Positions 5,880-59,815 of a stretch of 64,000 bases of DNA are shown here, one piece after another; the first letter of the stretch is position 1; each line of letters opens with the position of its first letter. The notes beneath the pieces were generated by a model. That model had not been told where the DNA came from. It saw only the letters and a program-made list of their open reading frames with translations, and did no database searches. The stretch lies in the IMG/VR virus record IMGVR_UViG_3300025000_000094. The stretch is one strand, 5' to 3'. This DNA is from an uncultured virus (IMG/VR IMGVR_UViG_3300025000_000094). Taxonomy: Duplodnaviria > Heunggongvirae > Uroviricota > Caudoviricetes. A program made the translations under genes and the position numbers.

Positions 5880-5880
5880 T

Positions 5881-6722
5881 CTACTCGCCTCTTATTTTTT
5901 TGACTTCTATTTCGGCCTGTGCATCGGTAAGTTCGGGCTTAACTTTCTTTATAGCTTTTATTGCCCTATTTATATCAGGAGTGCTTTTAATGGCATCAAA
6001 ATAGCTAACATCACTATTAGGAACCATAGTAGTTTGAAGGAGTTTAGTGAAATTAGCATCTAAATCGGCTTGTCTTTGAGGCACTTCTACTTTTGGTTTC
6101 GTTGTAGTAGCACCAAGAACCTTTTTAGACATCTCACCGGCCTTCTCTACGGCCTTCCTGGCCTCTCCTGTTGGCACAGCGGACAGCAACGCCTCTACTG
6201 ACTTTCCTTTAGCTGATAAAGCAGTTTTAATCCTATTTATTTCAGTCTCTACGCTGTTTATAGTCGGAGGAGCCTTCCTGTCTATTTTATACTCAGGAGC
6301 ATCAGGGTTCTCGTCTTTATCATATGCGTTACGAAGAGCCTCAAGACCTTTCATAAGCATTTCATCCGCAGGAAGATTGTACTTTGTCCCAGCTCCACCA
6401 CCAGAAGACTTCCTCTCTTCCTCAGGAATCCAGCGTTTAATAGCAAGACGTTTCGACTCTCCCGGTTTAAGAGTCTTTAAAACTTCAGGGTCAAGTTCAA
6501 GATAACCTTTTTCAATTAAATCAGATATTTGAGCTTCATCCGTGTCTGCGACTTTTTGTTCTCTAAGTTTTTTATCTGTTATTTCTTTATTTTTCCTATC
6601 AATATATTTACCACCAACAGAACCTAAAGTTGAAATAAGTTCTGCACCTATATTTGGCTTTTGCTGTTGAAGTTCAAGAACTTCTCTTGAGGATATCTAG
6701 CTTTAGGTATATATTCGGGCAT
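5881..6722 (-). CDS. Putative internal virion protein, apparently frameshifted near 6684
   Basis: Track ORF 5881-6360 stays open upstream to about 6696. ATG at 6722, just after the upstream stop, is in another frame and stops after 24 codons. Confidence 0.55.
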
Positions 6723-6724
6723 AA

Positions 6725-7378
6725 TTATCCTTCAGACTTTTTAGAAAATAAAGCATTACCTATCATTCCACCGACAGGCCCACCCATTATCCCACCACCA
6801 ATAGACCCAGCCGCACCTATAACAGAGGATAGTATGCTGGTTTTGCTGTTTTCTTTCATCTGTTTCTTAGCAAGAGCAAGTTGCTGTTCCATCATCTGAA
6901 TCTCTCTCTGTTGTGAAAGCTCTTGTCCTATGGCTTGAGCAAGGTTATTATACATCTGAGAATTTGACTGTATGTCCATCCCATACGCTTGCATTATATA
7001 CTGGGCCATCGTCTCTGACTGTTGCTGTGCAAGTTTACCAACAAGTTCAGCCTGTTGCTGTGTAGCGGTCTGTCTAGCTCCAGCCATACCAGCGGCCTCT
7101 ATATCAGAACCCCTCATCCCTCTAGCCCCAGCGTCACTCTGAGCCATAGCCGCCGCTTGTTCTCCACTTTGCTTAATAGCCGCAAGCTGAGGAGCAACAT
7201 TTTGAGAAGTCTGAGCAAACTGAGACTGAACGTATGGTAAAGCAGAAGTCATGCTCTGAGCTGTACTCATTTTTATTAAATCGAATATATTTTTAGAAGA
7301 AACATCAGTTTGAACATTCTGGTTCCCAGCCATTTTTACTTGAGGCAAACCGGGGACGCCTCCTGTACCTTCCGCCAT
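6725..7378 (-). CDS. Small internal virion / pilot (ejection) protein, putative
   Basis: Q/A/M-rich 217 aa with a Gly-rich C-terminal hydrophobic stretch (GAAGSIGGGIMGGPVGG); podovirus ejection-protein position. Confidence 0.6.
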   Translation of the reverse strand: MAEGTGGVPGLPQVKMAGNQNVQTDVSSKNIFDLIKMSTAQSMTSALPYVQSQFAQTSQNVAPQLAAIKQSGEQAAAMAQSDAGARGMRGSDIEAAGMAGARQTATQQQAELVGKLAQQQSETMAQYIMQAYGMDIQSNSQMYNNLAQAIGQELSQQREIQMMEQQLALAKKQMKENSKTSILSSVIGAAGSIGGGIMGGPVGGMIGNALFSKKSEG

Positions 7379-10307: not shown

Positions 10308-11006
10308 TTATTGTTTTCCGATTGCGCTAGGTAAATAATTTATTCGTTCAACACAACGTACTTTCATTAGGTCAGACATTACGTTGAAAGAGTCAAGGAA
10401 AACTTTTGCCTTGTCATACCTTTCATCCACTATGGATGCTTTATACGCACCGTAGTAGGTTAGTATATAATTAAAAGGCAGGAACTCAGAAATTGCATTA
10501 AACGGCACATCAGTATCATTAGTCAGTGCAGTAGACTGTGATATGTACTCAACCTTTATGGTAGCCAAATCAGAAGTAGCATTAGGGAAAGGCGCGAACC
10601 CTATCTTAGTGCGAGAAGAGAAGTTTAGGAAGTAGTACGTAGGAAGACCAGACTGATTCTCCCACTCAGCAGACCTTCCATCAAGCCCAGCCGGAGTCAT
10701 TTCTTGTATAGACAAAGCATCCCTAGTTACCCTACGGATATATATAAAATCACTAGGAAGCGAGTAATACGTTGTCCCCGATACAAGAGGGAAGACTGTA
10801 GACTTGTAGTTGCACAAAGTCTTAACATCTACAACTTTCTGCCCTTCATTTATCCACGCGTTTAATTCGCTGTCAGAGAATCTTTCTCTTGTTGAATGAG
10901 CGTCAGTGATGAGAGAACGAGCGTCTGCCCGCAACTCACTAAGAGTCGAAGCAGACGCTTGTCCAGCAAGGAGCAACAGTAAAGATACTTTAAACAGCAT
11001 TTTCAT
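10308..11006 (-). CDS. Head-tail adaptor (tail tubular protein A-like) with signal peptide
   Basis: TLSELR...FSDSELNAWINEG, YSLPSDF, GLPTYY motifs of podovirus adaptors; MKMLFKVSLLLLLAGQASA leader ending in A-S-A. Confidence 0.75.
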   Translation of the reverse strand: MKMLFKVSLLLLLAGQASASTLSELRADARSLITDAHSTRERFSDSELNAWINEGQKVVDVKTLCNYKSTVFPLVSGTTYYSLPSDFIYIRRVTRDALSIQEMTPAGLDGRSAEWENQSGLPTYYFLNFSSRTKIGFAPFPNATSDLATIKVEYISQSTALTNDTDVPFNAISEFLPFNYILTYYGAYKASIVDERYDKAKVFLDSFNVMSDLMKVRCVERINYLPSAIGKQ

Positions 11007-12478: not shown

Positions 12479-13363
12479 TTAGGCCTGATGCCCGTATATC
12501 CAGCGCCACTCAACGGTTGACACCTCAAAAGACGCGTAACCAGCCATCTTAAGAACCATAGTGTCAAACTCGCCAGTGCGGAAGAACTGGACCGGCTCCC
12601 ACTCGCGCCATATGAGCTTCTGCTTCATCATCTTCGAGTTCATCATGAACCAGTTGGACGAAGAGGTCAGGAAGTTGTCCCATATAATGCACTTGTAGCG
12701 ACCTTCAAGATAGTTCCGGTTGTTGATATTGTAATCAACCTTACCAACAGAGCGGAGTATCTCAAACGCCTTTTCAGCGTGGTCCATAGGAATCAGCAGC
12801 GTGTCCGGAGCATTGTACATGATATTGTCACGGTTGGTCTTCAGTTTCTTGAAGGCCAGTTCCGTAGCAAACACGTTAGCCGCAGAGAACGCCAGAGAAC
12901 CCGCATTAGACTGATTCGCACCGCCAACCTTGGACGTATGCGCCGCGTTACAGAGGCTCAGACCATCACCAGTGGTGAAAGTACCGAACGCATTGTTAAA
13001 CGGATACGCACCGCGGCTTTCGCGCAGAGCACGGAAAGAATCCGCCAGAGAAGCGGTCTTATCCTGAATCACACCATACAGGTCGTTACGAAGCAGACGG
13101 CGGGTAATCTTAATACCGTAAGCGTACTCACGCTCAGACACCGACTTCTTGTAACCTTCCTGGATGTCGTCATAGGAAATCTCCCCGTTAAATTCGGGGA
13201 CGACACCACTATCACCAGTCTCCAGGTCATACTCTACAGCCTGTTCCGCATCTTTAAAGCGGTACAGGAGAGGAATCATCGAGGGGTAATCCCTATATTG
13301 GTCAAGAAAGACGCAAGAGAGGTCTTTCTGAACTATCGAGGGCCATTTGCCAGCAGTAAGCAT
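12479..13363 (-). CDS. Major capsid protein
   Basis: 294 aa; EYAYGIKITRRLLRNDLYG, TGDGLSLCNAAH, PDTLLIP and SNWFM motifs of a Mu gpT-like/podovirus capsid family; SD AAGGAG. Confidence 0.85.
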   Translation of the reverse strand: MLTAGKWPSIVQKDLSCVFLDQYRDYPSMIPLLYRFKDAEQAVEYDLETGDSGVVPEFNGEISYDDIQEGYKKSVSEREYAYGIKITRRLLRNDLYGVIQDKTASLADSFRALRESRGAYPFNNAFGTFTTGDGLSLCNAAHTSKVGGANQSNAGSLAFSAANVFATELAFKKLKTNRDNIMYNAPDTLLIPMDHAEKAFEILRSVGKVDYNINNRNYLEGRYKCIIWDNFLTSSSNWFMMNSKMMKQKLIWREWEPVQFFRTGEFDTMVLKMAGYASFEVSTVEWRWIYGHQA

Positions 13364-16238: not shown

Positions 16239-18248
16239 CTAAACATTGTTTAGCGGGCTTTTAGGAGACGGAGTAACAGTAGACTGTGTTAAAGGCTGTG
16301 CCCCACCAGCCTGTGCCTTATTAAGCATTTGTTGTATAGGGTTCATTTGTTGCCCATCTGTTTGAATCATCAGCTTTTCTTTTTGAGGCTCACCAGAGGC
16401 TACAACCATCCTATTCCACATTTCTACAGCTTTCTGGTCATTAGCCTGTATAAGAGGAAGAAGTTGGGCGTAAGTCTGAAGTAATCCACCGAGTCTCTGC
16501 ATTGAAAATTCCGGGCTCAGGGTTACGCTCCGACGTTTAGCTCTCCATACTATAGAGTTGTCAAAGAACACCTTTTTATCAAGGCTTTTGACGGCGAGTT
16601 TCCCATCTTGCTCTATATTATACTTAACCCTATCAGGGCCAAACTGTGCAAGCAATGCACAATGAAGCTTTGCAAGGTCAGGCATAGAGCGCCTAAACTC
16701 GTCTAGATAGTCGTCTATACGCCCGTTCGCTTGCTGTAACAGGGCGATAGTCTTACCCATAGGGGCTCGAGGGTCTTGGACTGTTTCCTTGCCGGACATA
16801 GCCTGCGTGGGACCAAGGCAAAACTCGAGATACCTAACTATCTGGTTTTCCTCATCAAGGGAATCCCCACTGTTAGATAAATCATGCAACTGGAACTGCT
16901 TTATAGACTTATCGATGTCTTCAACGTAGAAAGCGGCTCCTGGCTTAATTATGTTCTCTGCCCTATAGAAATCAAGGTCTTCTTTGTACTTCTTGTCAAT
17001 AAGAAGTATCGGGCTTGTTGTAAGCATCCTAACGTTATTTCTGTTACGATGAATAGCATCAAGTAATTTAAATTTGTCTTGACCTTCGTTTAGAAGGGAT
17101 ATACCAAGGAACCTGTCTTCCCTAGACGCAAGCCTAAAGTCAACACAGAAATCTATGTTATTCCTTATGTGGTAGTTCTTAAAAGAAAGTACGATGTTGG
17201 GATGTTCAGCACTGAAGGTAACAAGATACTTTTCCGGTATACCATCACCATCCAAATCTTCTTTCCACACGGCGTCAATAATCTTAAAAGGCTTATCGTC
17301 GTCGGTAGGAGATATGACAAGTTTGTCTATGAAGTTCTTAGAAGCTGACCACCGGTCTTTTTCACCAGAAGGTTTCTTGGAGATTAATTCCTCAACCTTG
17401 TCCTTATAAAATTCATTCCTCTTGGCGGCCTCACGAAGCTTGTCCTTAGCCATGAAATATTCCCTGCCATACAGCTTCATATCGCAAATGCGAGTCTGAT
17501 AGGTAGGGTAATATACAAATCTAGCTAAAGGAATAATCTCGTAGGCGGGACCATCAAAAAGTATATTGTCAAACTGGTAGTTGGCTATTAACTCTACTTC
17601 TGGGTCTGTAATAAAAGCGTCGGCTATCTCTTGGTACTCTTCCTCTGTCATGCTGGCAGACATGTATGTAGGATAATCTGCCTGAAAATCAGCGTACTGC
17701 TTGTAAGTCTTACTGTCTGAACACTTCTCGATAGTCCGCTTCCAATAGCCGGATACTATAAGTGTGCCATCTCTAAGGCAAGGTATTGTACCCTGCTTAA
17801 GTATATCTAGTCCATTGCTCTCACTATGGAACGAATAGTTAGTGGCCTCTTCTATGCTAGGAAGTTGTTCTTTAACTTCGTCTTCCTTGCTAACGGCGGT
17901 AAATATATCAGGGTCTTGGTATGCTGTTAGCAAGGACGTGGATTTGAACGTTTTAGCCATACCAGAGGCATAAGATATGGTTACATTAGAAGAACCCTCA
18001 AACGGGAAATTGGTTACTTCTACCACGCCCTCAAGCATCTCATTCATCTCAATAAGATTCCTGCGGTTGTTGGTGGTTTGCTTTTCCCAAACCTTATACT
18101 CTTTATGAATTTTTGTACCAATAAAATCAAGCTTTTCTTTGCTCTTTTTTAAGTTCTTATCCTTCGTTATTTCCTTAACGCGTTCTATTTCTTTTTGAAT
18201 AGACTTGTCAAGACTAGGAGGAGGAGGTACAAATATATTTAACAGCAT
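16239..18248 (-). CDS. Portal protein
   Basis: 669 aa; FPFEGSSN, DLDGDGIPEKYLVT, DRFLGISL and LLQQANGRI motifs; position between terminase and scaffold. Confidence 0.85.
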   Translation of the reverse strand: MLLNIFVPPPPSLDKSIQKEIERVKEITKDKNLKKSKEKLDFIGTKIHKEYKVWEKQTTNNRRNLIEMNEMLEGVVEVTNFPFEGSSNVTISYASGMAKTFKSTSLLTAYQDPDIFTAVSKEDEVKEQLPSIEEATNYSFHSESNGLDILKQGTIPCLRDGTLIVSGYWKRTIEKCSDSKTYKQYADFQADYPTYMSASMTEEEYQEIADAFITDPEVELIANYQFDNILFDGPAYEIIPLARFVYYPTYQTRICDMKLYGREYFMAKDKLREAAKRNEFYKDKVEELISKKPSGEKDRWSASKNFIDKLVISPTDDDKPFKIIDAVWKEDLDGDGIPEKYLVTFSAEHPNIVLSFKNYHIRNNIDFCVDFRLASREDRFLGISLLNEGQDKFKLLDAIHRNRNNVRMLTTSPILLIDKKYKEDLDFYRAENIIKPGAAFYVEDIDKSIKQFQLHDLSNSGDSLDEENQIVRYLEFCLGPTQAMSGKETVQDPRAPMGKTIALLQQANGRIDDYLDEFRRSMPDLAKLHCALLAQFGPDRVKYNIEQDGKLAVKSLDKKVFFDNSIVWRAKRRSVTLSPEFSMQRLGGLLQTYAQLLPLIQANDQKAVEMWNRMVVASGEPQKEKLMIQTDGQQMNPIQQMLNKAQAGGAQPLTQSTVTPSPKSPLNNV

Positions 18249-18892: not shown

Positions 18893-19186
18893 TTATTTCT
18901 TGAACTTGTTTACAAAATTCTTCATCATGCTGCTATGCTCTTGAGGCGTAACTATCTTGCTCTTCCTTTCCTGCTCAGCCTTAATAAGAGTCATAACTGC
19001 TTTGAAATACTCAATCTTCATACTGTCCAAAAGTAGAGTAGCCTCAAGTACAGGAACCTTATTAACGGGTATACCAATCCAGAACATGCTTGTTTCCGGA
19101 TTGAACTCCATTACGGGACCATCTACACGAGGGAGAGAAAGCTTTATTTCTTCTTTGGCGGGGGCTTCAGTAGTTGTGTTTTCCAT
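18893..19186 (-). CDS. Hypothetical protein
   Basis: Translationally coupled to the GroES-like gene. Confidence 0.55.
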   Translation of the reverse strand: MENTTTEAPAKEEIKLSLPRVDGPVMEFNPETSMFWIGIPVNKVPVLEATLLLDSMKIEYFKAVMTLIKAEQERKSKIVTPQEHSSMMKNFVNKFKK

Positions 19187-19509
19187 TAGTTTACCTCGAC
19201 GGCAAGCATGTCTTCTTGTGTTATAATTATGTAAGTAGTACCGTCTTCAGTTACTATCTTAGGGCAATCTAAACTTACCGGAGAACACCACACTTTTTCG
19301 CCAATCTTAAGTTCATGCCTAATGTATTCAAAATCAATTTTGTCCCCGAGTATTACTACTTCGCCTTTCCAAGCGTCTGCCCTACGTTTTTTCTTTCTGT
19401 CTATAACGCTATCAGGGATATAAAAAGTGCCGACCTTATTTACATCATTCAACTGTTTAACAAGAATCCTGTCACCTTTCAAGTCAAGCCTCTTAATGTC
19501 ACAATTCAT
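19186..19509 (-). CDS. groES: Co-chaperonin GroES-like protein
   Basis: LKGDRILVK...FYIPDS...GEVVILG...LKIGEKV...YIIITQEDMLAV follows the Cpn10 pattern. Confidence 0.8.
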   Translation of the reverse strand: MNCDIKRLDLKGDRILVKQLNDVNKVGTFYIPDSVIDRKKKRRADAWKGEVVILGDKIDFEYIRHELKIGEKVWCSPVSLDCPKIVTEDGTTYIIITQEDMLAVEVN

Positions 19510-20167: not shown

Positions 20168-21790
20168 TCACGTAATTTTCCTCACACCGTATTTATCACC
20201 TTGAAAATTAGGGTTAAACACCATGCTACCGTTACCACGCATGTAAATATCTTTAAACGATTTCTCGCTAGGGTCTAGGTCTTGTGTGTACTTAGAAGCA
20301 ATAAACCAAGCTATTGCAAAGCCCATCACCCTGTCACTATAACAACCCTCTTGAGGCTCCATTGACTCGCCATCGTACACGAACGACCGCATTTCATCAA
20401 TTAGTGCACTTGAACGAATCTTGATTCTGAAATCCTTGATACCCTCAGAAAGCTTATGTATCATCAGAGGCTTTGTGCGTTTGGTTGTTTCCCAGCCGTA
20501 CAGTTGGTCTTTAGACTTGTAGGAGTAGTCTGACTTCTCACGCTTCCAAAGGTTAGAATACCCAAGCCCTATAAGTTTCTGCATGGTAACAGCGCCAACA
20601 CCGGGCCAAGACTCAGGTATAAGCAGGGCATTGTTATAATACCTTCCAAGTGTGGCTAAAGTATCACCGAACTCGTCAGGGGCAATATGACCGTGGTATT
20701 CACCTACCTGTTCCATTTCGTTGATGTCTATAATCTCAGCAGTAGAGAAGCAACCGTTTTTAATACCCTCAGCCACATCAGCGCCTATTACGTAGGTATG
20801 GTTCTGTGTAGGCATTTTCCAGATACGAAGGTTGCCATTGTCCACAGGCTTAAATCTAACCTCCTCACCAGCATCGATGAGCAATCCACGCCACCCCGGT
20901 TGCTTACAGAACTTTTCATGTTCCATAAGTGATATCCAGTCAAACACCATAGCAGAGGAAGATATGAAAGCTTCTTCAGCAGTAACAGGGTATTCCTGTG
21001 GGAAGAGTTCAACCTGTGACATATCCCTACGTTTCTTCCTTCGCCAAGCTATCTGCTCCATGTCGCAGTTGAATATGTCAACAAGGTCTTTTTCTTCCTT
21101 GCTTAAATCGTTAAACCCCTGTACGCCTTTGATACGGTAGGTATCGTCCAGCACCCAAGGTATAAATATGGCTTTATAGCGGGAGTTATTTTGTACTGCT
21201 TTCTTCCAAAGCTGGTGAGCGAAGTTAATACCGTTTGCGGTAGTCTCTATCACACCCTCTGCATCGTCCATCAGGGCTTCTTCTACGGCAGTCAGGACTT
21301 CTGGGTCGTCCCAGTGGGCAAACTCCGAAAGATGGTAGTCTGTTATGTCCGAACCCCGACCGAACTTCTTGCTGCCAGCTGTCCCGATGTAGAAAGTCGA
21401 ACCCGTGTCCAGGAACTCTATCATCCCTTCCGATTCCTTTATCTTCACGTTCATCGGCCATAAACAGTTCTTAACCATTGGCATAACACGCTCACGGAAC
21501 ATCTTAACAGTAGCGTCATCGTTCTGAGTTAACATGATGGCGCGCTTGTTCTCTTGGAAGTTACACTTGTGTATAAACCGTGCTATGTTAAAGGTAGACA
21601 TTCCTCCCTTGCGTGACTTTATGATGTAGTCAAACTTGGAGTGGTTCTCCCAGTAATACTTCTGAATTTTGTTTAGTTTAAACCTGACAAGCTTATTGGT
21701 AGACTTGTCTATAATTTGGTAAGCTTTCTCAGCAAAAAAGATTAAATCTTCCTTGCACCTTCGCAGGATTTCTTCTTTGGTGATTTCCAT
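20168..21790 (-). CDS. terL: Terminase large subunit
   Basis: IIKSRKGGMST Walker A, HLSEFAHW Walker B, IETTANG, IGADVAEG nuclease motif, DRVMGFAI. Confidence 0.92.
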   Translation of the reverse strand: MEITKEEILRRCKEDLIFFAEKAYQIIDKSTNKLVRFKLNKIQKYYWENHSKFDYIIKSRKGGMSTFNIARFIHKCNFQENKRAIMLTQNDDATVKMFRERVMPMVKNCLWPMNVKIKESEGMIEFLDTGSTFYIGTAGSKKFGRGSDITDYHLSEFAHWDDPEVLTAVEEALMDDAEGVIETTANGINFAHQLWKKAVQNNSRYKAIFIPWVLDDTYRIKGVQGFNDLSKEEKDLVDIFNCDMEQIAWRRKKRRDMSQVELFPQEYPVTAEEAFISSSAMVFDWISLMEHEKFCKQPGWRGLLIDAGEEVRFKPVDNGNLRIWKMPTQNHTYVIGADVAEGIKNGCFSTAEIIDINEMEQVGEYHGHIAPDEFGDTLATLGRYYNNALLIPESWPGVGAVTMQKLIGLGYSNLWKREKSDYSYKSKDQLYGWETTKRTKPLMIHKLSEGIKDFRIKIRSSALIDEMRSFVYDGESMEPQEGCYSDRVMGFAIAWFIASKYTQDLDPSEKSFKDIYMRGNGSMVFNPNFQGDKYGVRKIT

Positions 21791-21795
21791 GAGTG

Positions 21796-22065
21796 TTATG
21801 CTACTTCAGATTCAAGTTGACCGCGGTAAGCGTTTAGGATTGCCACTTCCATCTTCTTGCGGCATTCCTGATTGATAGGATGGCAGACATCATTATACTT
21901 TCCATCTTTGGATTTCATACTCGGCATACACACAACAAAGCCTTCTGGCTTGGATATGATACGGATTTTGCGGATACAGAACGCTTCGTCTATTACTATG
22001 GAACAGTAAGCCGCAACAGGGGGTTCTTCCTTGACGACTTTTATATTTATACTAGTGATATCCAT
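21796..22065 (-). CDS. spoVG: SpoVG family nucleic-acid-binding protein
   Basis: MDITSINI...AYCSIVIDEAFCIRKIRII...FVVCMPS...YNDVCHPINQECR; start refined to 22065. Confidence 0.85.
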   Translation of the reverse strand: MDITSINIKVVKEEPPVAAYCSIVIDEAFCIRKIRIISKPEGFVVCMPSMKSKDGKYNDVCHPINQECRKKMEVAILNAYRGQLESEVA

Positions 22066-22639
22066 GTTGTTTGTGTTCCTTTTTATGACAATCCACACAA
22101 AGAGTTTCTCCATTATTTATTTCCCACAAAGGGGAATACTTCATTGCGGACTCATATATATTATCTTTCCCAAATATTTCTTTTAAATTGTCTATAAGTT
22201 TTTTAAATCTTATTAAATGATGTGCATTAAGTTTTGGTTTAACCTTCCCACATTTTGCACACCTAAAACCGTCTCTTTGAAATACACTAATAATCCAGTC
22301 TTTATACTTTCTTGAATTTTTTATTAGTTTTATTTCATCAGTAATACCGCCTTTCCAATTAGTACTACCAGACCCAGACCTTTCTTTTTTATATGTTTCG
22401 CCCATGCATTTTCTTGAACAGTGTTTGCCAAAACCCCTATAAACCACATCTTTTCTAACAGAAAATTCTTTATTGCACACACAACACTTTGTTTTAACTA
22501 AAGAAATACATCCTGGTTTATACTCTTTTTTGCATTTTGTAGAACAAAAGTTATGCTTATTGTTTATTTTTTGGAATAAAGATGTTTTAAATTCTTTGCC
22601 ACAATAAAAACATACAACAGAAACTATTTTCTTTCGCAT
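22052..22639 (-). CDS. HNH endonuclease with N-terminal Cys repeats
   Basis: CFYCGKEF...FCSTKC repeats, NWKGG, VFQRDGFRCAKCG...AHH...NGETLCVDCH; start refined to MRKK. Confidence 0.85.
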   Translation of the reverse strand: MRKKIVSVVCFYCGKEFKTSLFQKINNKHNFCSTKCKKEYKPGCISLVKTKCCVCNKEFSVRKDVVYRGFGKHCSRKCMGETYKKERSGSGSTNWKGGITDEIKLIKNSRKYKDWIISVFQRDGFRCAKCGKVKPKLNAHHLIRFKKLIDNLKEIFGKDNIYESAMKYSPLWEINNGETLCVDCHKKEHKQHGYH

Positions 22640-44352: not shown

Positions 44353-44682
44353 CTATTTATCTTCTGTCTTTATACCCATTTTGGAAAGGATTGTTTTTTC
44401 AACCATAGCCAAAATTTCATCATCTTTTGTGGTAGCTGTTTTTTTTACAACTGTACGGCTTATGCTGTATGCAGGTATCACAATAGCCATAATAAACGCA
44501 AAGGTCTCAGGAGACAGTTTCCCAAGGAAAAAAGCCGCCATAGACCCTATAACGCCAAGAACTGTAATAAAAAACTCTGAACTAAAGAACCCTTTTTTTG
44601 TTTCCATACATTTCCTCCAACATTCTTTTATTTCTGAAAGTATTGCTAAAATTTTATATATATATTTAATTTTTTTAAACAT
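44353..44682 (-). CDS. Holin-like membrane protein
   Basis: KKGFFSSEF followed by two hydrophobic segments; next to the endolysin; true start may be 44607. Confidence 0.6.
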   Translation of the reverse strand: MFKKIKYIYKILAILSEIKECWRKCMETKKGFFSSEFFITVLGVIGSMAAFFLGKLSPETFAFIMAIVIPAYSISRTVVKKTATTKDDEILAMVEKTILSKMGIKTEDK

Positions 44683-44832: not shown

Positions 44833-45288
44833 TTAAGCAAGCTTTTTATAGACACCGGCTATCCCCTCAAGAAGACTTAATTCTTTATCCTTGTTAACGT
44901 GAATCCAAAATACACCTCTAGATGCCTCAATTATTATCTTGGCTGATATAGACCTTTTAATAAATTCTGTATATATTTTATGACCAATTTCGTTAACCGC
45001 GGCGAAATCCCACTCTGGCTTAAAGATATCAGCAGCTATCCCAAATGAATGCTTTGAAGTTGGAACGCCGCCTACCCACCTGTTAAGTTTCTGACACCTA
45101 AATCCGGAAGAAACTATGTACGGTCCTATTAATTCACGAATTGGGTCCAAAATACTTGTAGTAAAATTAATTGTATCTACCAAAAAAGGCACTGATTCTT
45201 CTCTATTCTCAACTAAAAGTCCTACATTACGGGTATTTGTGAACTCGTAAAATCCTATATATTTGCTTAGTTTAAAATCTGGTATCAT
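44833..45288 (-). CDS. Endolysin, peptidase M15A family
   Basis: SSGFRC..LN..VGG..TSKH..GIAAD...WIHV. Confidence 0.88.
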   Translation of the reverse strand: MIPDFKLSKYIGFYEFTNTRNVGLLVENREESVPFLVDTINFTTSILDPIRELIGPYIVSSGFRCQKLNRWVGGVPTSKHSFGIAADIFKPEWDFAAVNEIGHKIYTEFIKRSISAKIIIEASRGVFWIHVNKDKELSLLEGIAGVYKKLA

Positions 45289-45289
45289 A

Positions 45290-45559
45290 TTATCTACGAA
45301 TAAGAGCGTTCTCTATCCTGGCAAGCCTATCATCTATGGATTGGGATATTGCCTCAATTCGCACAACCTTGGCTTCTACGGCCTTTACCCTCTCGGGAAG
45401 CCCTTGGTATCCAAAAGACATTGCTCCTGCCGTAAACGCAATTCCTAACAGTAAGAATAGCTGTTTAACGTGTTGCCAATCGTTAACGCACGATGTCTTA
45501 TCGGACCCATTGGGTTTTGCCCCAAAAGCCCTCATTATTGCCTTACTCACCTTTTCCAT
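45290..45559 (-). CDS. Single-TM coiled-coil protein (lysis cassette)
   Basis: One hydrophobic segment then IDDRLARIE coil; upstream of the endolysin. Confidence 0.55.
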   Translation of the reverse strand: MEKVSKAIMRAFGAKPNGSDKTSCVNDWQHVKQLFLLLGIAFTAGAMSFGYQGLPERVKAVEAKVVRIEAISQSIDDRLARIENALIRR

Positions 45560-46110
45560 TAACTTCTCCTTTTCATTACATCAATCTCAAACCTGCTTGC
45601 TCCGTTCCCTAGCTTATTCCCACGAAGCCACCCAATCTGGTTCCACCTACCGAATAGCCAAAACTCGCAGTAGGGCCGGCGGGCGTGCTCGTAGGTGCGC
45701 GTGACGTAGAAGTTGCGCTTGCCGTCGTGGGGTTCTTCGGACAGGAAGCGGCCTAACTTCATGGCGGCGTAGTTGTTCCAGTTCACGCAGGAATTGCGGA
45801 TGGCGCTCCACCAGTATGCTTTGAGGAAGTCGGAGCCGGAGGCCCACACGAAGGCCGGGAAGTATTTCTCCCTGTTGCCGTAGTCCACGCCGAACTCTAT
45901 GAACACGCTGTCGTCGAGGAGCAGCCACAAGGGCCACCAGTAGCCGTGCAGGGGCAGGCGCAAGTAGTCGCGCCAGTCTATCGGCGTGAGCGTCTGGTAG
46001 CGCACCTTGTGGCGCAGGGCGTAGGCCACGGGATAAAGCACCGCCGACAGCACGCGCTTGACGGGTTCCAGGAGGAGGTAGGCGAGGAGGTGAAGCATAT
46101 CAGTATTCAA
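45559..46110 (-). CDS. Hypothetical Trp-rich protein spanning the GC breakpoint
   Basis: 183 aa, YWWSAIRN motif; codon style switches near 45,660. Confidence 0.65.
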   Translation of the reverse strand: MNTDMLHLLAYLLLEPVKRVLSAVLYPVAYALRHKVRYQTLTPIDWRDYLRLPLHGYWWPLWLLLDDSVFIEFGVDYGNREKYFPAFVWASGSDFLKAYWWSAIRNSCVNWNNYAAMKLGRFLSEEPHDGKRNFYVTRTYEHARRPYCEFWLFGRWNQIGWLRGNKLGNGASRFEIDVMKRRS

Positions 46111-56204: not shown

Positions 56205-56545
56205 GACCCGGCCTCCATGATCTCCTTGCACATTAAGTCCAGGAAGATCTTGCGCATTTCGGGGTCTATCACGGAAACGATAACGAAGTACCTCGGGGAG
56301 GTGGTTCCCCAAGCCACGCGCCAGCCCGGCCGCACGCCGGCGTGATAGCGTATCCGCACCTTCACGTCCACAACGGAGAGCATCTGCTGGCCAGCCAGGT
56401 ACTGATCGCCGCGCAGCGGGCGGATCTCCGCGCGCACGTTGGAGAACTGCGTGGTCCAGGTGTTCGCGGGCGCGCCCAGCGAATTAGGGCCGGTGGAGAC
56501 CGGCTTCTGCAGGACCACAACGTGGCGGAGGGCGCCCGCGTGCAT
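56201..56545 (-). CDS. Head closure protein (SPP1 gp16-like)
   Basis: MHAGALRHVVVLQ...VRAEIRPLRG...IRY. Confidence 0.85.
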   Translation of the reverse strand: MHAGALRHVVVLQKPVSTGPNSLGAPANTWTTQFSNVRAEIRPLRGDQYLAGQQMLSVVDVKVRIRYHAGVRPGWRVAWGTTSPRYFVIVSVIDPEMRKIFLDLMCKEIMEAGS

Positions 56546-57144
56546 TAGTCCCCCCTCTGGTACATGTCTATCTGACTCAGGATATCCTGCAGGGTGAGCG
56601 GTAACTGCTTTATGTCGGTGTTTCCTACCGCGCCGGCGGTGGCGTCACGGTTCTCGTACCAGTAGGAGGCCAGCATGTTGACCGCCAGCCTTACCTCTTC
56701 AGGCACGGCCGCTGCGGCGCCGTAGCCCGCAGTAAACTCTATGTCTACGCCGTTGACCTCCTTGAGGTCGTCGGAAGGCCAGGCGTACCCGTCCTTTAGC
56801 TTTATGCGGGCCGGCAGGGATACCAAGTCGGTTACATAGCTGCTCGCGGCCAGGGTCCGCACGTTTCCCTCAACGTCGGTGTACTTAACACTGGACACAG
56901 CCGACACAGGGCCTATCGGCAGCTTTACCACGTCCGCGGCCGGGAACTCATCCAGGTAGTAGTTCCATGTCTGGGTCACCATGCGTATGCCGGTCACCCC
57001 CTCTATCCAGCGCCGGGCGGCCTTAACCAGGGCGCCTATAAGCGTGTCGTCTTCGCTTATGTCCACGCGCATGTGGGCCTTGGCCTCCGCGGTGGTCACA
57101 GGTTCCGCCGCCGGTGCTGTCTTAAGATAGAGGGTTCCTTTCAT
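56545..57144 (-). CDS. Head-tail connector (gp6-like)
   Basis: EPVTTAEAKAHMRVD..DDTLI...WYENR. Confidence 0.88.
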   Translation of the reverse strand: MKGTLYLKTAPAAEPVTTAEAKAHMRVDISEDDTLIGALVKAARRWIEGVTGIRMVTQTWNYYLDEFPAADVVKLPIGPVSAVSSVKYTDVEGNVRTLAASSYVTDLVSLPARIKLKDGYAWPSDDLKEVNGVDIEFTAGYGAAAAVPEEVRLAVNMLASYWYENRDATAGAVGNTDIKQLPLTLQDILSQIDMYQRGD

Positions 57145-57153
57145 GGCGGTCTC

Positions 57154-57471
57154 TTACTCCTGCGCGGGCTTCTCCAGCAGGGCCTTCATGGCGGCTTTGG
57201 CCTCGGCCACGGCTTTACCGGCGGCAGCCTTCTCCTGCTTGTTGCCGGCCTTTTTAAGGGCTTCCTGGGCATCGGCCAGCACCTTCTCGGCGGCCACTAC
57301 CTCCGGGGCTTTGGCGGCCTCTTCGGGCGCCGGCGCGGGCTTCTCCTGCACGGGCGCGGCGTAGCCGCCGTCTATGAAGGCTTTAGCCTCGGCTTCGGGC
57401 AGGTTGTACTCCTGCCCGGCCAGCAGCACGCCGGCGGGACCGGCGGCAAGGGTTATCATTTTTACTTTCAT
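57154..57471 (-). CDS. Small capsid-associated hypothetical protein
   Basis: MKVKM...AGP.G...EAKAFIDGGYA, Ala/Lys-rich tail. Confidence 0.6.
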   Translation of the reverse strand: MKVKMITLAAGPAGVLLAGQEYNLPEAEAKAFIDGGYAAPVQEKPAPAPEEAAKAPEVVAAEKVLADAQEALKKAGNKQEKAAAGKAVAEAKAAMKALLEKPAQE

Positions 57472-57483
57472 GGTGTTGTCTCC

Positions 57484-58068
57484 TTACTGTGCCCCAACCT
57501 TAACCCAAGACTGATCCCCGGCCGGAGCCTCGGTAGAGATGTAGAGCGCATTGTCGCTGGTGAGCACGGCCAGGCAGTTCTTGGCATAGCCGCTGGCCGG
57601 CAGGGCCGCCACGGCGCCTATCAGGCAGAAGGACTGCGAAGATGTGACGGACGTGGACACTGTGACGGTAGCCGCGGTATGGGTAACAGCCCCGGTAAAA
57701 GCGGCGGTAGTGCTGATAAGGCCGCCGTTAAAGGTGGCCACGCCGGTCCACGCCTGCGCGCCGCTAGCCGCGGTAAACGTGGATTTGTAGTTGGACGCGC
57801 CGTAGTAGGCGTTGCCGGTCTGGGTAAGCACGCCAGACTGCGTTAAGGCCGCGGCGTTGGTAAACACGGCGCCGGCCTGGATGTCCAGGATGGCCCCGCT
57901 CAGCAACTCCATCTCGCCGCCGCTGGTTATCACTTTCTTGGCGCCGCCCTGCTCCGTGTATATCTTGGTGTTATACTGGGCGAACACCGGCGAAGCGGCG
58001 GCCATGATCCCGATTATAAGCACCACCACCAGCAGCTCTAAAAACGTAAATCCTTTTCTGATGTTCAT
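57484..58068 (-). CDS. Head fibre-like protein with type IV prepilin-like N-terminus
   Basis: MNIRKG-FTFLELLVVVLIIGIMAA (G-1/F+1/E+5), then YNTKIYTEQGG head-fibre-like start; SD GGAGG; start refined. Confidence 0.7.
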   Translation of the reverse strand: MNIRKGFTFLELLVVVLIIGIMAAASPVFAQYNTKIYTEQGGAKKVITSGGEMELLSGAILDIQAGAVFTNAAALTQSGVLTQTGNAYYGASNYKSTFTAASGAQAWTGVATFNGGLISTTAAFTGAVTHTAATVTVSTSVTSSQSFCLIGAVAALPASGYAKNCLAVLTSDNALYISTEAPAGDQSWVKVGAQ

Positions 58069-58086
58069 CATTCCTCCTTGGTTAGT

Positions 58087-58120
58087 AAAAAGGCCCCGGC
58101 CATGTTTCAGACCGGGGCCT
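58087..58120 (-). terminator. Intrinsic terminator after the capsid/decoration genes
   Basis: AGGCCCCGG..CCGGGGCCT hairpin followed by a T run on the minus strand. Confidence 0.7.
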
Positions 58121-58141
58121 CCGGTCATTTAGCAGTTCCGC

Positions 58142-58591
58142 TTAGGCGGTGCCCTCGGCGGGGCCCACGTGCTGCTCGCTACCGTCCACGTTGGCGGGCT
58201 GGGTGACGGGCAGTTTCCTGGAACCGAACTTGATCACCAGGATGCTGTCTATCTCCACGTTCTGCGCGGCGCGGGTGGCGATGAGCTTCAGGTAGCGCTT
58301 GCCGGGGTTTATCACCTCGATAGCCTGCACCTTCTCGGCGGCTTCGTCGCCGGAGTTCACCAGCGAGGTGCCTTCCAGGTCGCCGTAGGCGTCCGCGGAG
58401 CCGTCGTCCGAGGACTGCTGCACCTTGCAGGTGTTGGTGCCGCCCGACACTATGGCGCCCAGTTCCACCAGGAACAGCGCGCCCTCGTAGCCGGCCATGT
58501 CCACGGGGTCCGAGGTGACAGCCCCGGTGCCCGCGGCCTGGCTGACTTTTATGCGGTCCACGACCGCGTTGCTAAGCAGTGACTTAATCAT
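58142..58591 (-). CDS. Capsid decoration protein, putative
   Basis: VDMAGYEG...KVQQS.D...KRYLKL jelly-roll-type protein directly after the capsid gene. Confidence 0.65.
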   Translation of the reverse strand: MIKSLLSNAVVDRIKVSQAAGTGAVTSDPVDMAGYEGALFLVELGAIVSGGTNTCKVQQSSDDGSADAYGDLEGTSLVNSGDEAAEKVQAIEVINPGKRYLKLIATRAAQNVEIDSILVIKFGSRKLPVTQPANVDGSEQHVGPAEGTA

Positions 58592-58618: not shown

Positions 58619-59815
58619 TTACGCGCCCATCTTTATGCGGGCGAAGGCCTCTTCCAGCACAGGCATACCGTCCACTTCCTGCCGGCCGATAAAGCCCACC
58701 TTGTTGTTGCGGGCGTTCAGTTCGTTCAGGCGCTGCACGCTGTAGTTCTGTCCGTCGGCGATCCAGTAGTTGGACAGGTCGCCATACAGGCCGACGTACT
58801 GGTTGGCGGTCATGGTGCTGGGGCAGTACTCGCTCATGTCCACCGGCTTGTTGAGCAGCATGTCCGTCTCCGGGTCCCAGATGTACTTGCCGTCGGCGTA
58901 CTTCAGCAACGCGATGGCGGCCAGGATGTCGCGGTGGATCATCCAGCGGCAGTTCTTCTGGTACTGCTGCTTGACGGAGAACTTCACCTTCTTGAGGTTA
59001 TCGAAGGAGATAACCGTGGCCGTGTTGTGCGTGGCGATGTCGCGGGTGGTGCTGATGCCCTGGGCGGACGCGGTGAACAGGCCCAGCGGCTGGCCGTTGC
59101 CGGTGCCGGTCAGGAAAGCTTTCTCCTGCGGCAGGGCGAACTTATAGGCCAGGCGGTCCATCACCAGGTTCTCCACCGGGAGGGCGCTGATGCGCAGCAG
59201 CTTCATGCTGACCTGCACTTCTTTGGACAGCAGGTGCGGCTTCAGGTCGCGGCCGCCGAACTTCATGGCCGTGTCGGAGTTAACCGCGCCCACCTCGGCG
59301 GTCCAGTCCGCGTCGGACGGGTCGCTTTCGATAGTGGGGCAGCCCAGGCTGTCGCTCTCGGTGACGGGGATCACCGTGGCGTGCTGGCGCACGAACAGCA
59401 GGTCGTCGAGCTTCTTGATCAGGCGTGTCAGCGCCTGGGCCGGGGTCACTATGTACCCGCCGGACTCGGGGGCGTCGGCCTGCAGGGTGCGCAGCTCGGG
59501 GGCCAGGCGGCCGGTCTTAAGGTACGTGCGGTAGGCCACCAGTTCTTTCTCGGTGTCCTTGTTAGCGGGGGCGGGCGCGGCGCCGCCGGCGGTCTCCACC
59601 TTGCCGTCCGCGGTGCGCAGCTCGGTTTCCAGGAGTTCCATCTTCTCCAGCCGGTCTATGGACGTGCGGGTTTCCTTCACGTCGTTCATCATGGTGTCGT
59701 ACTTGGCCTTCTGCTCGTCGTTAAACTTGCCGTCGGCGGCGTTGTCCAGCATGGAGCGGGCTTCGTTTACGGTGCGCACCATGGTGGCGCGCAGTTTGGC
59801 AATCTTCTCTTTCAT
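58619..59815 (-). CDS. Major capsid protein, HK97 family
   Basis: N-terminal coiled-coil delta domain, GGYIVTP, FLTGTGNGQPLG, YGDLSNY. Confidence 0.93.
   Translation of the reverse strand: MKEKIAKLRATMVRTVNEARSMLDNAADGKFNDEQKAKYDTMMNDVKETRTSIDRLEKMELLETELRTADGKVETAGGAAPAPANKDTEKELVAYRTYLKTGRLAPELRTLQADAPESGGYIVTPAQALTRLIKKLDDLLFVRQHATVIPVTESDSLGCPTIESDPSDADWTAEVGAVNSDTAMKFGGRDLKPHLLSKEVQVSMKLLRISALPVENLVMDRLAYKFALPQEKAFLTGTGNGQPLGLFTASAQGISTTRDIATHNTATVISFDNLKKVKFSVKQQYQKNCRWMIHRDILAAIALLKYADGKYIWDPETDMLLNKPVDMSEYCPSTMTANQYVGLYGDLSNYWIADGQNYSVQRLNELNARNNKVGFIGRQEVDGMPVLEEAFARIKMGA

Follow-up and report, generated by a model that had tools for sequence, protein, structure and literature searches.

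A mosaic fibre-type protein with a pilin-type start in the head operon of an uncultured tailed phage

We analysed a stretch of 64,000 nucleotides (nt) from an uncultured virus (IMG/VR record IMGVR_UViG_3300025000_000094; Caudoviricetes), below called the window, and in it a gene whose product joins the start of a type IV prepilin to a domain of phage head modules and a small C-terminal knob. This protein of 194 amino acids (aa), here called the target, reads MNIRKG↓FTFLELLVVVLIIGIMAAASPVFA↓QYNTKIYTEQGG, where the arrows, here and below, mark putative cut sites. It is translated from an ATG at 58066-58068, directly preceded by a second ATG (58069-58071), and its stop codon occupies 57484-57486. 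The positions of the parts of the gene and of the other features are collected in Table 1.

The late operon that holds the gene has the order small and large terminase, portal, S78 protease, capsid, 149-aa gene, target, 105-aa gene and head-tail adaptor, and continues with head closure, neck, tail completion, a tail protein bearing an immunoglobulin (Ig) domain, tape measure and distal tail proteins. On these gene assignments the owner of the operon is an HK97-type siphovirus. An initial annotation, made from the letters alone, had given both the open reading frame (ORF) with its translation and its place in a head operon. We confirmed the frame, with AAGGAGG before the ATG, and the Pfam and PHROG calls on the neighbours from capsid to adaptor agree with the placement. 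The capsid proteins of the phages compared below are 36-43% identical to that of the window, and their adaptors 34-65%. The 149-aa gene shares 25-63% identity with ~148-aa genes of the related loci L009-L013 and L019, and in the relatives checked its homologue stands directly upstream of the gene that carries the head-module domain of the target (hereafter the N-domain); homologues of the 105-aa gene were found in L003, L010, L011 and L019. The content of guanine and cytosine (GC) of the target gene (0.607; 0.779 at third codon positions, GC3) is like that of its neighbours (0.57-0.66), and the gene thus does not have the look of a recent import.

A GC-rich hairpin separates the 149-aa gene from the ribosome-binding site of the target. 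The region 58060-58150 on the minus strand folds with -33.9 kcal/mol (z -3.56 against shuffled sequences), and the hairpin has the appearance of an attenuator or an intrinsic terminator, even if it is absent from the output of a consensus terminator scan. The sole promoter-like site that we found lies inside the target gene.

Table 1. Positions in the window of the target gene, its parts, its operon neighbours and other features
Feature	Position	Strand	Description and basis
Target gene, mosaic and probably exported fibre-type protein	57484..58068	minus	194 aa plus stop codon; ORF and sequence
Class III leader peptide MNIRKG	58051..58068	minus	residues 1-6, Gly ending the candidate prepilin-peptidase site; PF07963 and TIGR02532
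Hydrophobic alpha1N-like tract FTFLELLVVVLIIGIMAAA	57994..58050	minus	residues 7-25, Phe+1, Glu+5; apparently pilin-derived
Signal-peptidase-I-type c-region S-P-V-F-A	57979..57993	minus	residues 26-30, putative cut before Q31; alignment
Head-module N-domain, QYNTKIYTEQGGAKKVITSGGEMELLSGAILDIQAG...	57814..57978	minus	residues 31-85; phrog_12102 and alignments
Middle shaft	57667..57813	minus	residues 86-134, Thr/Ala/Gly-rich; inter-chain contacts in trimer model
C-terminal knob	57487..57666	minus	residues 135-194; profile search
Cys148	57625-57627	minus	in knob
Cys165	57574-57576	minus	in knob
Shine-Dalgarno sequence AAGGAGG	58073..58079	minus	4 nt 5' of the ATG at 58066-58068; read from sequence
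GC-rich hairpin	58087..58122	minus	stem of 10-13 bp, 8-nt loop, then five U; between 149-aa gene and target ribosome-binding site
149-aa head-module gene, upstream of target	58142..58591	minus	phrog_5707, E 1.8e-10
HK97-type major capsid protein	58619..59815	minus	PF05065, E 1.2e-55
105-aa head-module gene, downstream of target	57154..57471	minus	phrog_2616
Head-tail adaptor	56545..57144	minus	PF05135, phrog_442
Fibre-like late protein, 728 aa	46100..48286	minus	same phage; Gly_rich_2 domain, Sec-type start MKTILTILLFLTSAAQA↓G, 4 Cys
Terminase, SU10-type module	20168-21790	minus	
SU10_portal	16239-18248	minus	
Capsid, SU10-type module	12479-13363	minus	
SU10_adaptor	10308-11006	minus	
SpoVG-like gene	21796-22113	minus	low-GC part
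Cpn10-like gene	19186-19509	minus	low-GC part

A pilin-type start with a signal-peptidase-I-type end

The first 25 residues of the target carry a class III (prepilin-peptidase) motif. Gly-1, Phe+1 and Glu+5, which the initial annotation had stated, and a hydrophobic tract of ~21 residues are legible in MNIRKG↓FTFLELLVVVLIIGIMAAASP, and both profiles of the N-methylation motif score above their cut-offs: PF07963 N_methyl with 27.2 bits (cut-off 21.2) over residues 1-25 and NCBIfam TIGR02532 with 27.0 bits (cut-off 16.3) over residues 4-25. In addition, four PHROG families without an assigned function match residues 1-40 of the target only (E 2e-4 to 6e-3), showing that prepilin-type starts do occur in catalogued phage proteins.

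The closest relatives show how this start ends. P0002 (82% identity) has the same MNIRKG and shares the start MNIRKGFTFLELLVVVL(V/I)IGIMAAA, a leader that is near letter-for-letter that of the target, and its c-region, which differs by an indel, ends in A-L-F-A↓Q. P0003, P0004 and P0005 (51, 40 and 58% identity to the target over the part aligned by BLASTP) begin with short classical Sec signals, in which MK or MR and a hydrophobic run lead to A-M-A↓Q, G-V-A↓Q or G-M-A↓Q, and these ends align exactly at S-P-V-F-A↓Q of the target; the leader of P0148 ends in A-F-A↓Q. The alignment agrees with the suspected signal-peptidase-I site at V-F-A. The P0003 gene lies between the capsid and adaptor genes of a related phage (L003; adaptor 65% and capsid 40% identical). 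The maximum of hydropathy over ten residues is 3.7 in the helix of the target, against 2.3-3.4 in P0003-P0007. From these comparisons the leader of the target appears to be a hybrid, whose n- and h-regions (residues 1-25) would derive from a type IV pilin gene and whose c-region is as in the Sec-type relatives; the best reading of the alignment is that the pilin start stands in for a Sec signal. Signal peptidase I would then cut at A30↓Q31, and prepilin peptidase might cut at G6↓F7.

A pilin-type motif could also mean a pilin-type function. The target would then be a working pilin-like subunit that is cut at G6↓F7 and keeps its helix. Host machinery for type IV pili or for type II secretion would load the trimer, which at the filament tip, the place of trimeric modular minor pilins, would display or extrude the fibre, or block the pilus and so act in superinfection exclusion. 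The motif is indeed complete, with a short basic leader and a hydrophobic tract of ~20 residues, and it is retained in P0002; PHROG families that match the leader region alone exist, and the mature part models as a trimer (see below). Modular pilins with grafted modules are described as widespread in PMC8179133, where CofB is given as a trimer that is predicted to be exposed. However, a pilin module has an alpha1 helix of ~50 residues packed on a beta-sheet head, and the helix of the target stops at residue 24, to be followed by Ser-Pro, the signal-peptidase-I-type end and, at residues 31-82, a phage N-domain. Full-length pilin and pseudopilin models touch only the start of the target and score far under their cut-offs (GspH 25.3/80, GspG 20/88.85, ComGC 17.7/75), no pilus genes are present in the window, and the orthologues carry cleavable Sec signals, so that their function needs no pilus machine. 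The target is not a pilin, since the pilin module, a defining feature, was looked for and is absent; this also removes the case, raised at the outset, of an ordinary pilin behind the leader. The suggestion that the protein enters or poisons the host pilus found no support, as there is neither a pilin fold after residue 24 nor a pilus gene in the window, and we regard a working pilin-like subunit as improbable. A long shot, too, is a more elaborate form, in which the type IV machine would accept a phage-built trimer with a pilin head, trimmed by prepilin peptidase; the three retained helices would seed or cap a pilus or pseudopilus, in a position like that proposed for trimeric tip pilins such as CofB, and the fibre would be pushed through the outer membrane. 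If true, such a hijack of the pilus machine would give the phage either an export route for a part of its virion or a means of disabling the pilus as a receptor.

The leader codons recur in the same habitat. Seven other contigs from it match 57996-58072 only (about residues 1-25) at ~80-90% identity, with 4-14 differences, and diverge on both sides; read by eye, they go on as the pilin motif A-(I/L)-P-Q-Y-F-K. Some of these groundwater contigs are covered more deeply than the phage, and they hold ordinary pilin genes of community members. These genes may be related to the donor of the leader. Codons 4-10 of the target gene are rare (AGA 1.8%, GGA 8.6% and TTA 2.4% of synonyms), and a test of codons 2-30 for a foreign origin gave a GC3 z of -0.98; AT-rich gene starts are common for other reasons.

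The abundance in these samples of pilin genes with similar leader codons, and the two-part composition of the window, which may be chimeric at about 45.67 kb, would suit an assembly artefact that joined a fragment of a pilin gene to a phage gene. Against this, a protein identical to the target is encoded on 14 contigs, and, counted separately, on two IMG/VR contigs. A contig of 455 nt from a run of another study spans 57736-58190 with zero differences and crosses the junction between leader and mature part, and the separate relative P0002 has the same architecture. The runs that contain this DNA are labelled as groundwater metagenomes. We give an artefact next to no credence.

The head-module domain, the knob and their cysteines

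Behind the leader, residues 31-82 of the target match positions 2-50 of the 74-position profile phrog_12102 (E 7.2e-6). This match supports the earlier recognition of the YNTKxYTEQGG start as a family motif. Proteins of this family begin with the domain, which in the target is offset by 30 residues from the protein start. A scan of viral contigs with an N-domain alignment returned ten loci: two of the target's own, one Sec-leader relative and seven others (L009-L015). In all seven the protein is leaderless, opening at residues 1-4 with M(S)(Y)NTK.Y.EQGG, and an in-frame stop lies immediately 5' of the gene. Five of them share the order terminase, portal, protease, capsid, ~148-aa gene, N-domain gene and adaptor, which is the order of the window; the protein of L014 is that of L013, and the contig of L015 starts at the N-domain gene. 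The C-terminal halves of the leaderless relatives are unlike that of the target.

A profile search with the N-domain in a collection of 5.8 billion proteins gave 223 matches, and the counts that follow refer to the best 120 of these, classed by a script. Ninety-five are leaderless, with the domain preceded by six residues at most; a hydrophobic leader heads 22, two bear another extension, and one is a fragment. The claim that such proteins normally lack a leader therefore stands for the 95, but a leader is not peculiar to the target, as it recurs in the 22. These leaders differ in kind: among the 22 are short Sec signals, a 39-residue type beginning with MKKQR, and signal-anchor types with a linker. 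The target alone has one of class III. At L026, L027 and L028 (for example L028:278-2692) the N-domain stands behind a leader that runs from MKKQR through a hydrophobic run to T-A-C-K-A-E-E-P-E-A-R-S-S, possibly a lipoprotein signal with a linker; proteins of this type reach ~804-811 aa and hold 6-12 Cys. No leaderless copy of the N-domain gene was found in the window, L003 or L019.

The phi29 head-fibre family PF11133 does not match it, and a Pfam scan at E <=0.01 returned PF07963 only. In tblastn searches of cultured-phage records the mature part and P0065 had no match, and P0133 gave one row at E 0.9; a search of a genome collection gave a single locus, whose contig was binned as Nanoarchaeota and has a portal gene adjoining the match. 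The term 'head fibre' of the initial annotation is consistent with the gene position and with the trimer model described below, but it is no family name, since PF11133 is unmatched and phrog_12102 has no assigned function.

The C-terminal knob defines a second, unnamed family. Its profile, searched against 1.84 billion representatives, found 157 at E <=1e-3 and 90 at E <=1e-10 (target 2.4e-53), in proteins of 59 to 1914 aa. The motif ...LP-x-SGY...Y-I-S-T-E...SW... stands at the extreme C-terminus in 139 of 152 sequences examined; L156 and P157 are invariant, and Y176, T179 and W188 nearly so. A simple rule of hydropathy and charge classed the starts of these 139 proteins as Sec-like in 119; eight were fragments, and the other 12 showed no such start or missed the charge. 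In a Pfam scan of 145 other knob representatives only seven gave any match, and none matched PF07963.

Where the context is visible, knob-family genes lie in phage structural operons, in varied slots. L019, a relative of 42% GC, has two such genes with leaders in its head module (5297-7183), whose products are P0023, which combines the N-domain with what may be a Cys of lipoprotein type at its cut site, and P0061, with a GDTMTG fibre motif. L016-L018 have their gene in the slot after the tail tube gene and before that of the tape measure, where tail assembly chaperones are usual; these are low-GC siphoviruses (29-34% GC; for example L016:7001-7558) with a tube gene of the Phage_tube_2 family. 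In L021 and L023 it stands in a group of tail genes, where neighbouring products likewise begin in a Sec-like manner, in L004 near a terminase gene and in L005 next to a portal gene. At L024:5132-7777 the core LPT(S/T)G..EGD..(Y)F(V)K... stands at the N-terminus of two leaderless proteins, suggesting that a core of ~35 residues may be a mobile mini-domain. A tblastn search of the window with the knob found no second copy, and hence nothing to suggest that the target acts as a decoy of a tail fibre of the same phage.

Paired cysteines occur in both families. The positions of Cys148 and Cys165 co-vary over the knob family, in which 61 members have both, 73 neither and five one (Fisher 4.5e-33), and two of the five have a Cys one column off. 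Among the N-domain relatives, an even non-zero number of Cys occurs in 16 of the 22 proteins with a leader and in 12 of the 95 without (Fisher 5e-8, uncorrected for kinship), and 45 of the 95 are free of Cys. A pair within the N-domain itself (Y-x-C-x-V-Y-T-E-Q-G-C-A-K) is present in five of the 22 (P0224, P0237, P0258, P0259 and P0266) and in none of the 95. The leader-bearing forms are thus richer in paired Cys, which is the direction predicted by oxidative folding outside the cytoplasm. Together with the aligned A↓Q ends of the Sec signals, this lends strong comparative support to the option, already raised, that the protein is exported and clipped, and we consider it probable from these sequence patterns that the target leaves the cytoplasm. 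The only other late protein of the phage with a hydrophobic start is the 728-aa fibre-like protein, which has repeats of the VNLSTVTTALAGK type and two of its four Cys 17 residues apart.

If the leader were a relic without function, or if translation began later, for example at Met22, the target would be an ordinary cytoplasmic head fibre. Such a protein would be in line with the leaderless majority of N-domain relatives, and an in-frame ATG is present at codon 22. However, the first ATGs follow a perfect AAGGAGG, whereas codon 22 has no such sequence in front of it, which disfavours a downstream start; P0002 keeps the leader, its c-region still ending in F-A↓Q despite the indel; and the paired cysteines and the orthologues with Sec signals would be left over. 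We hold it to be quite improbable that the target stays in the cytoplasm.

Trimer model and a proposed route

An AlphaFold2 (AF2) model from 40 sequences has a mean predicted local distance difference test (pLDDT) score of 80, with a helix at residues 4-24, a middle that is mostly coil in the monomer, and a knob of pLDDT 86-97. Modelled as a homotrimer, residues 31-194 scored 0.79, which passes the mark set for the tool, against 0.00 for the best of three controls; in calibration this mark was reached by 20 of 30 solved one-chain pairs and by one of 23 solved single chains, and the trimer run, unlike the calibration, used the target's own alignment and three copies. The trimer runs agreed in at least 92% of contacts with a partner pLDDT of at least 85, and the inter-chain contacts are continuous over residues 41-141 and on into the knob. 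The model supports an intertwined trimeric fibre as the mature form of the target.

Searches for a known fold gave little. Solved structures searched by sequence yielded nothing better than E 0.15, Foldseek with the AF2 model against the Protein Data Bank (PDB) returned no rows at E <=0.001, and the best match in a BFVD fold search had E 7.6e-3. A wide fold search with VIA reached Z 3.8 at best, inside the range that is common by chance for this tool, and the ESM Atlas matches were viral 'hypothetical' clusters only. In these model comparisons, the likeness of the knob to the trimerisation domains of collagen XV and XVIII, to chitin-binding domains and to fibre tips is only a lead.

Tailed phages are thought to build the whole particle in the cytoplasm, which makes an exported head-module protein odd. 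We propose, tentatively and at somewhat less than an even chance for the chain as a whole, that the target is a trimeric fibre-type late protein, derived from a cytoplasmic head-module protein that became exported, which docks on capsids at lysis. The very hydrophobic pilin-type helix would bring the nascent chain to the inner membrane through the signal recognition particle (SRP) and Sec, as with pilins. Pilins and pseudopilins reach the membrane by this route, which would suit a fibre that trimerises fast. The fibre part would pass into the periplasm, where a disulfide could form between Cys148 and Cys165 in the knob and the three chains would intertwine. Signal peptidase I, with or without an earlier cut by prepilin peptidase at G6↓F7, would release the fibre, leaving a mature end Q-Y-N-T-K that lies no more than one or two residues from where the leaderless relatives naturally begin. 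In the last and least certain step, periplasm and cytoplasm would mix at lysis and the free N-domain would dock on finished capsids, giving a head fibre matured in the periplasm. The main reason for thinking that the N-domain keeps its original job is that the A↓Q cut, also in the Sec-type relatives, restores the leaderless start; that this job was on the head is suggested by the gene position.

Several points weigh against this proposal. phrog_12102 has no assigned function and no solved structure matched, so that the binding of capsids would have to be granted to the N-domain from its context. The terminator-like hairpin precedes the gene, and the varied slots of leader-bearing knob genes also fit inserted accessory genes. 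Docking after lysis must overcome dilution, and we found no description of it in the literature searched. Both predicted cut sites come from motif rules and alignment, and the Cys statistics are uncorrected for relatedness. Finally, the h-region could persist as an uncut membrane anchor, because it is long (19-20 residues) and contains a Glu.

The hairpin and the varied slots fit a second reading, that the target is exported, on the same evidence, but never becomes a part of the virion. It would then be a moron-like late accessory protein that acts at the envelope, with an N-domain that only starts the trimeric shaft, and it might mask receptors, exclude superinfection, keep progeny off debris or serve as an adhesin. 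The knob is weakly like small sugar-binding or trimerisation domains of fibre tips (Foldseek and VIA, E >0.001, Z <=3.8), which would also suit such roles. However, the target gene stands where the resident leaderless gene would be, no leaderless copy remaining in the window, L003 or L019, and in GC it does not look recently imported. Moreover, the polar start N-T-K-x-Y-x-E-Q-G-G is kept in distant exported forms and would be freed as an N-terminus by the Sec cut, suggesting that the original binding function was retained. We regard a role confined to the envelope as the main alternative, if rather less likely than not, and the docking of a periplasm-matured fibre on capsids as the reading to be preferred.

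The rest of the window differs from the late operon of the target. The window as a whole has ~40% GC up to about 45.67 kb and ~60% GC beyond; the switch (45559-46110, near 45670) falls inside an ORF. An assembly chimera, the joining of two records or recombination could each account for this change of composition. Of the words of the window, 50% also occur in G001 (25.7 kb), the nearest virus record, which lacks the target gene. The low-GC part encodes, at 1-24189 on the minus strand, a second, unrelated structural module of the SU10 (podovirus) type, which includes three proteins of ~975-990 aa without a Pfam family. The lysis genes of the low-GC phage (44353-45288, minus) comprise a Peptidase_M15 endolysin (44833-45288) and then a small membrane protein, in which a KKGFFSSEF stretch is only superficially like a prepilin site. 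The ORF at 44353-44682 has a weak likeness to the leader of the target (E 1.2), which stems from a holin-like membrane protein and not from a pilin.

Meaning and comparison with known systems

One slot of the head module is thus occupied by three forms of protein: leaderless and poor in Cys; with a Sec signal; and with a pilin-type start and a Sec-type cut site. This series, along with the paired Cys that were gained, is a natural swap experiment, which suggests that export itself was selected and not one particular signal. What is new here is the pilin-type leader and the series of leaderless, Sec and pilin-type forms in one slot; we found no literature description of a prepilin- or Sec-type leader on a head or fibre protein of a tailed phage, in a search at abstract level with subscription journals outside it. 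If the exported fibre reaches capsids, outer parts of the virion can complete their maturation in the periplasm, to be added to the particle only at lysis, and a maturation of such parts outside the cytoplasm would, if shown, be the larger novelty. If the protein acts at the envelope, a structural gene would have been turned in place into an accessory gene that acts at the surface. For annotation, the target is a warning that a prepilin motif in a phage protein does not make it a pilin. It is, in addition, a compact case: a protein of 194 aa with two candidate cut sites and one predicted disulfide.

The phrog_12102 proteins (PHROGs v4) have the same N-domain as the target (N-T-K-x-Y-x-E-Q-G-G with SGG repeats) and the same slot, after the capsid and the ~148-aa gene and before the adaptor. 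Their domain starts at residues 1-4; in the target an export leader of 30 residues comes first.

Type IV pilins, and among them the modular minor pilins PilB and PilC of S. sanguinis and CofB of enterotoxigenic Escherichia coli (ETEC), share with the target, according to PMC8179133, the class III signal with Gly-1, Phe+1, Glu+5 and hydrophobic tract, and the modular minor pilins also a non-pilin module behind the leader. A trimer of CofB is described there, whereas that of the target is modelled only. Unlike pilins, the target has no alpha1C and no beta-sheet head, but a signal-peptidase-I-type site after the helix; its gene lies in a phage head operon, and its orthologues use Sec signals.

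The Sec-leader relatives P0003-P0005 and the knob family of ~157 representatives share with the target the Cys pair of the knob, an export leader, a fibre-like body and the aligned A↓Q junction, and P0003 also its N-domain and its place between the capsid and adaptor genes. The leaders of these proteins are of the ordinary Sec type, in contrast to the class III leader of the target.

Late operons of phages are known to encode exported proteins, such as Bor and Lom of lambda, Llp of T5 and gp15 of HK97, which bear signals, are encoded among structural genes and, as the target might, could act at the envelope. These are unrelated in sequence to virion parts, whereas the target keeps a head-module domain and replaces a resident gene. 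The head fibre gp8.5 of phi29 (PF11133), fibritin-type proteins of T4 and knobs of the collagen XV/XVIII type are trimeric with a small C-terminal knob, as in the model of the target, and, unlike it, have no export leader. The trimerisation domain of collagen XVIII aligns with the knob over 46 residues (VIA Z 3.8, root-mean-square deviation 2.5), a value within the noise range. By its domains, the target belongs to two families at once: to phrog_12102, where its leader is an addition, and to the unnamed knob family, where the type of its leader is unusual.

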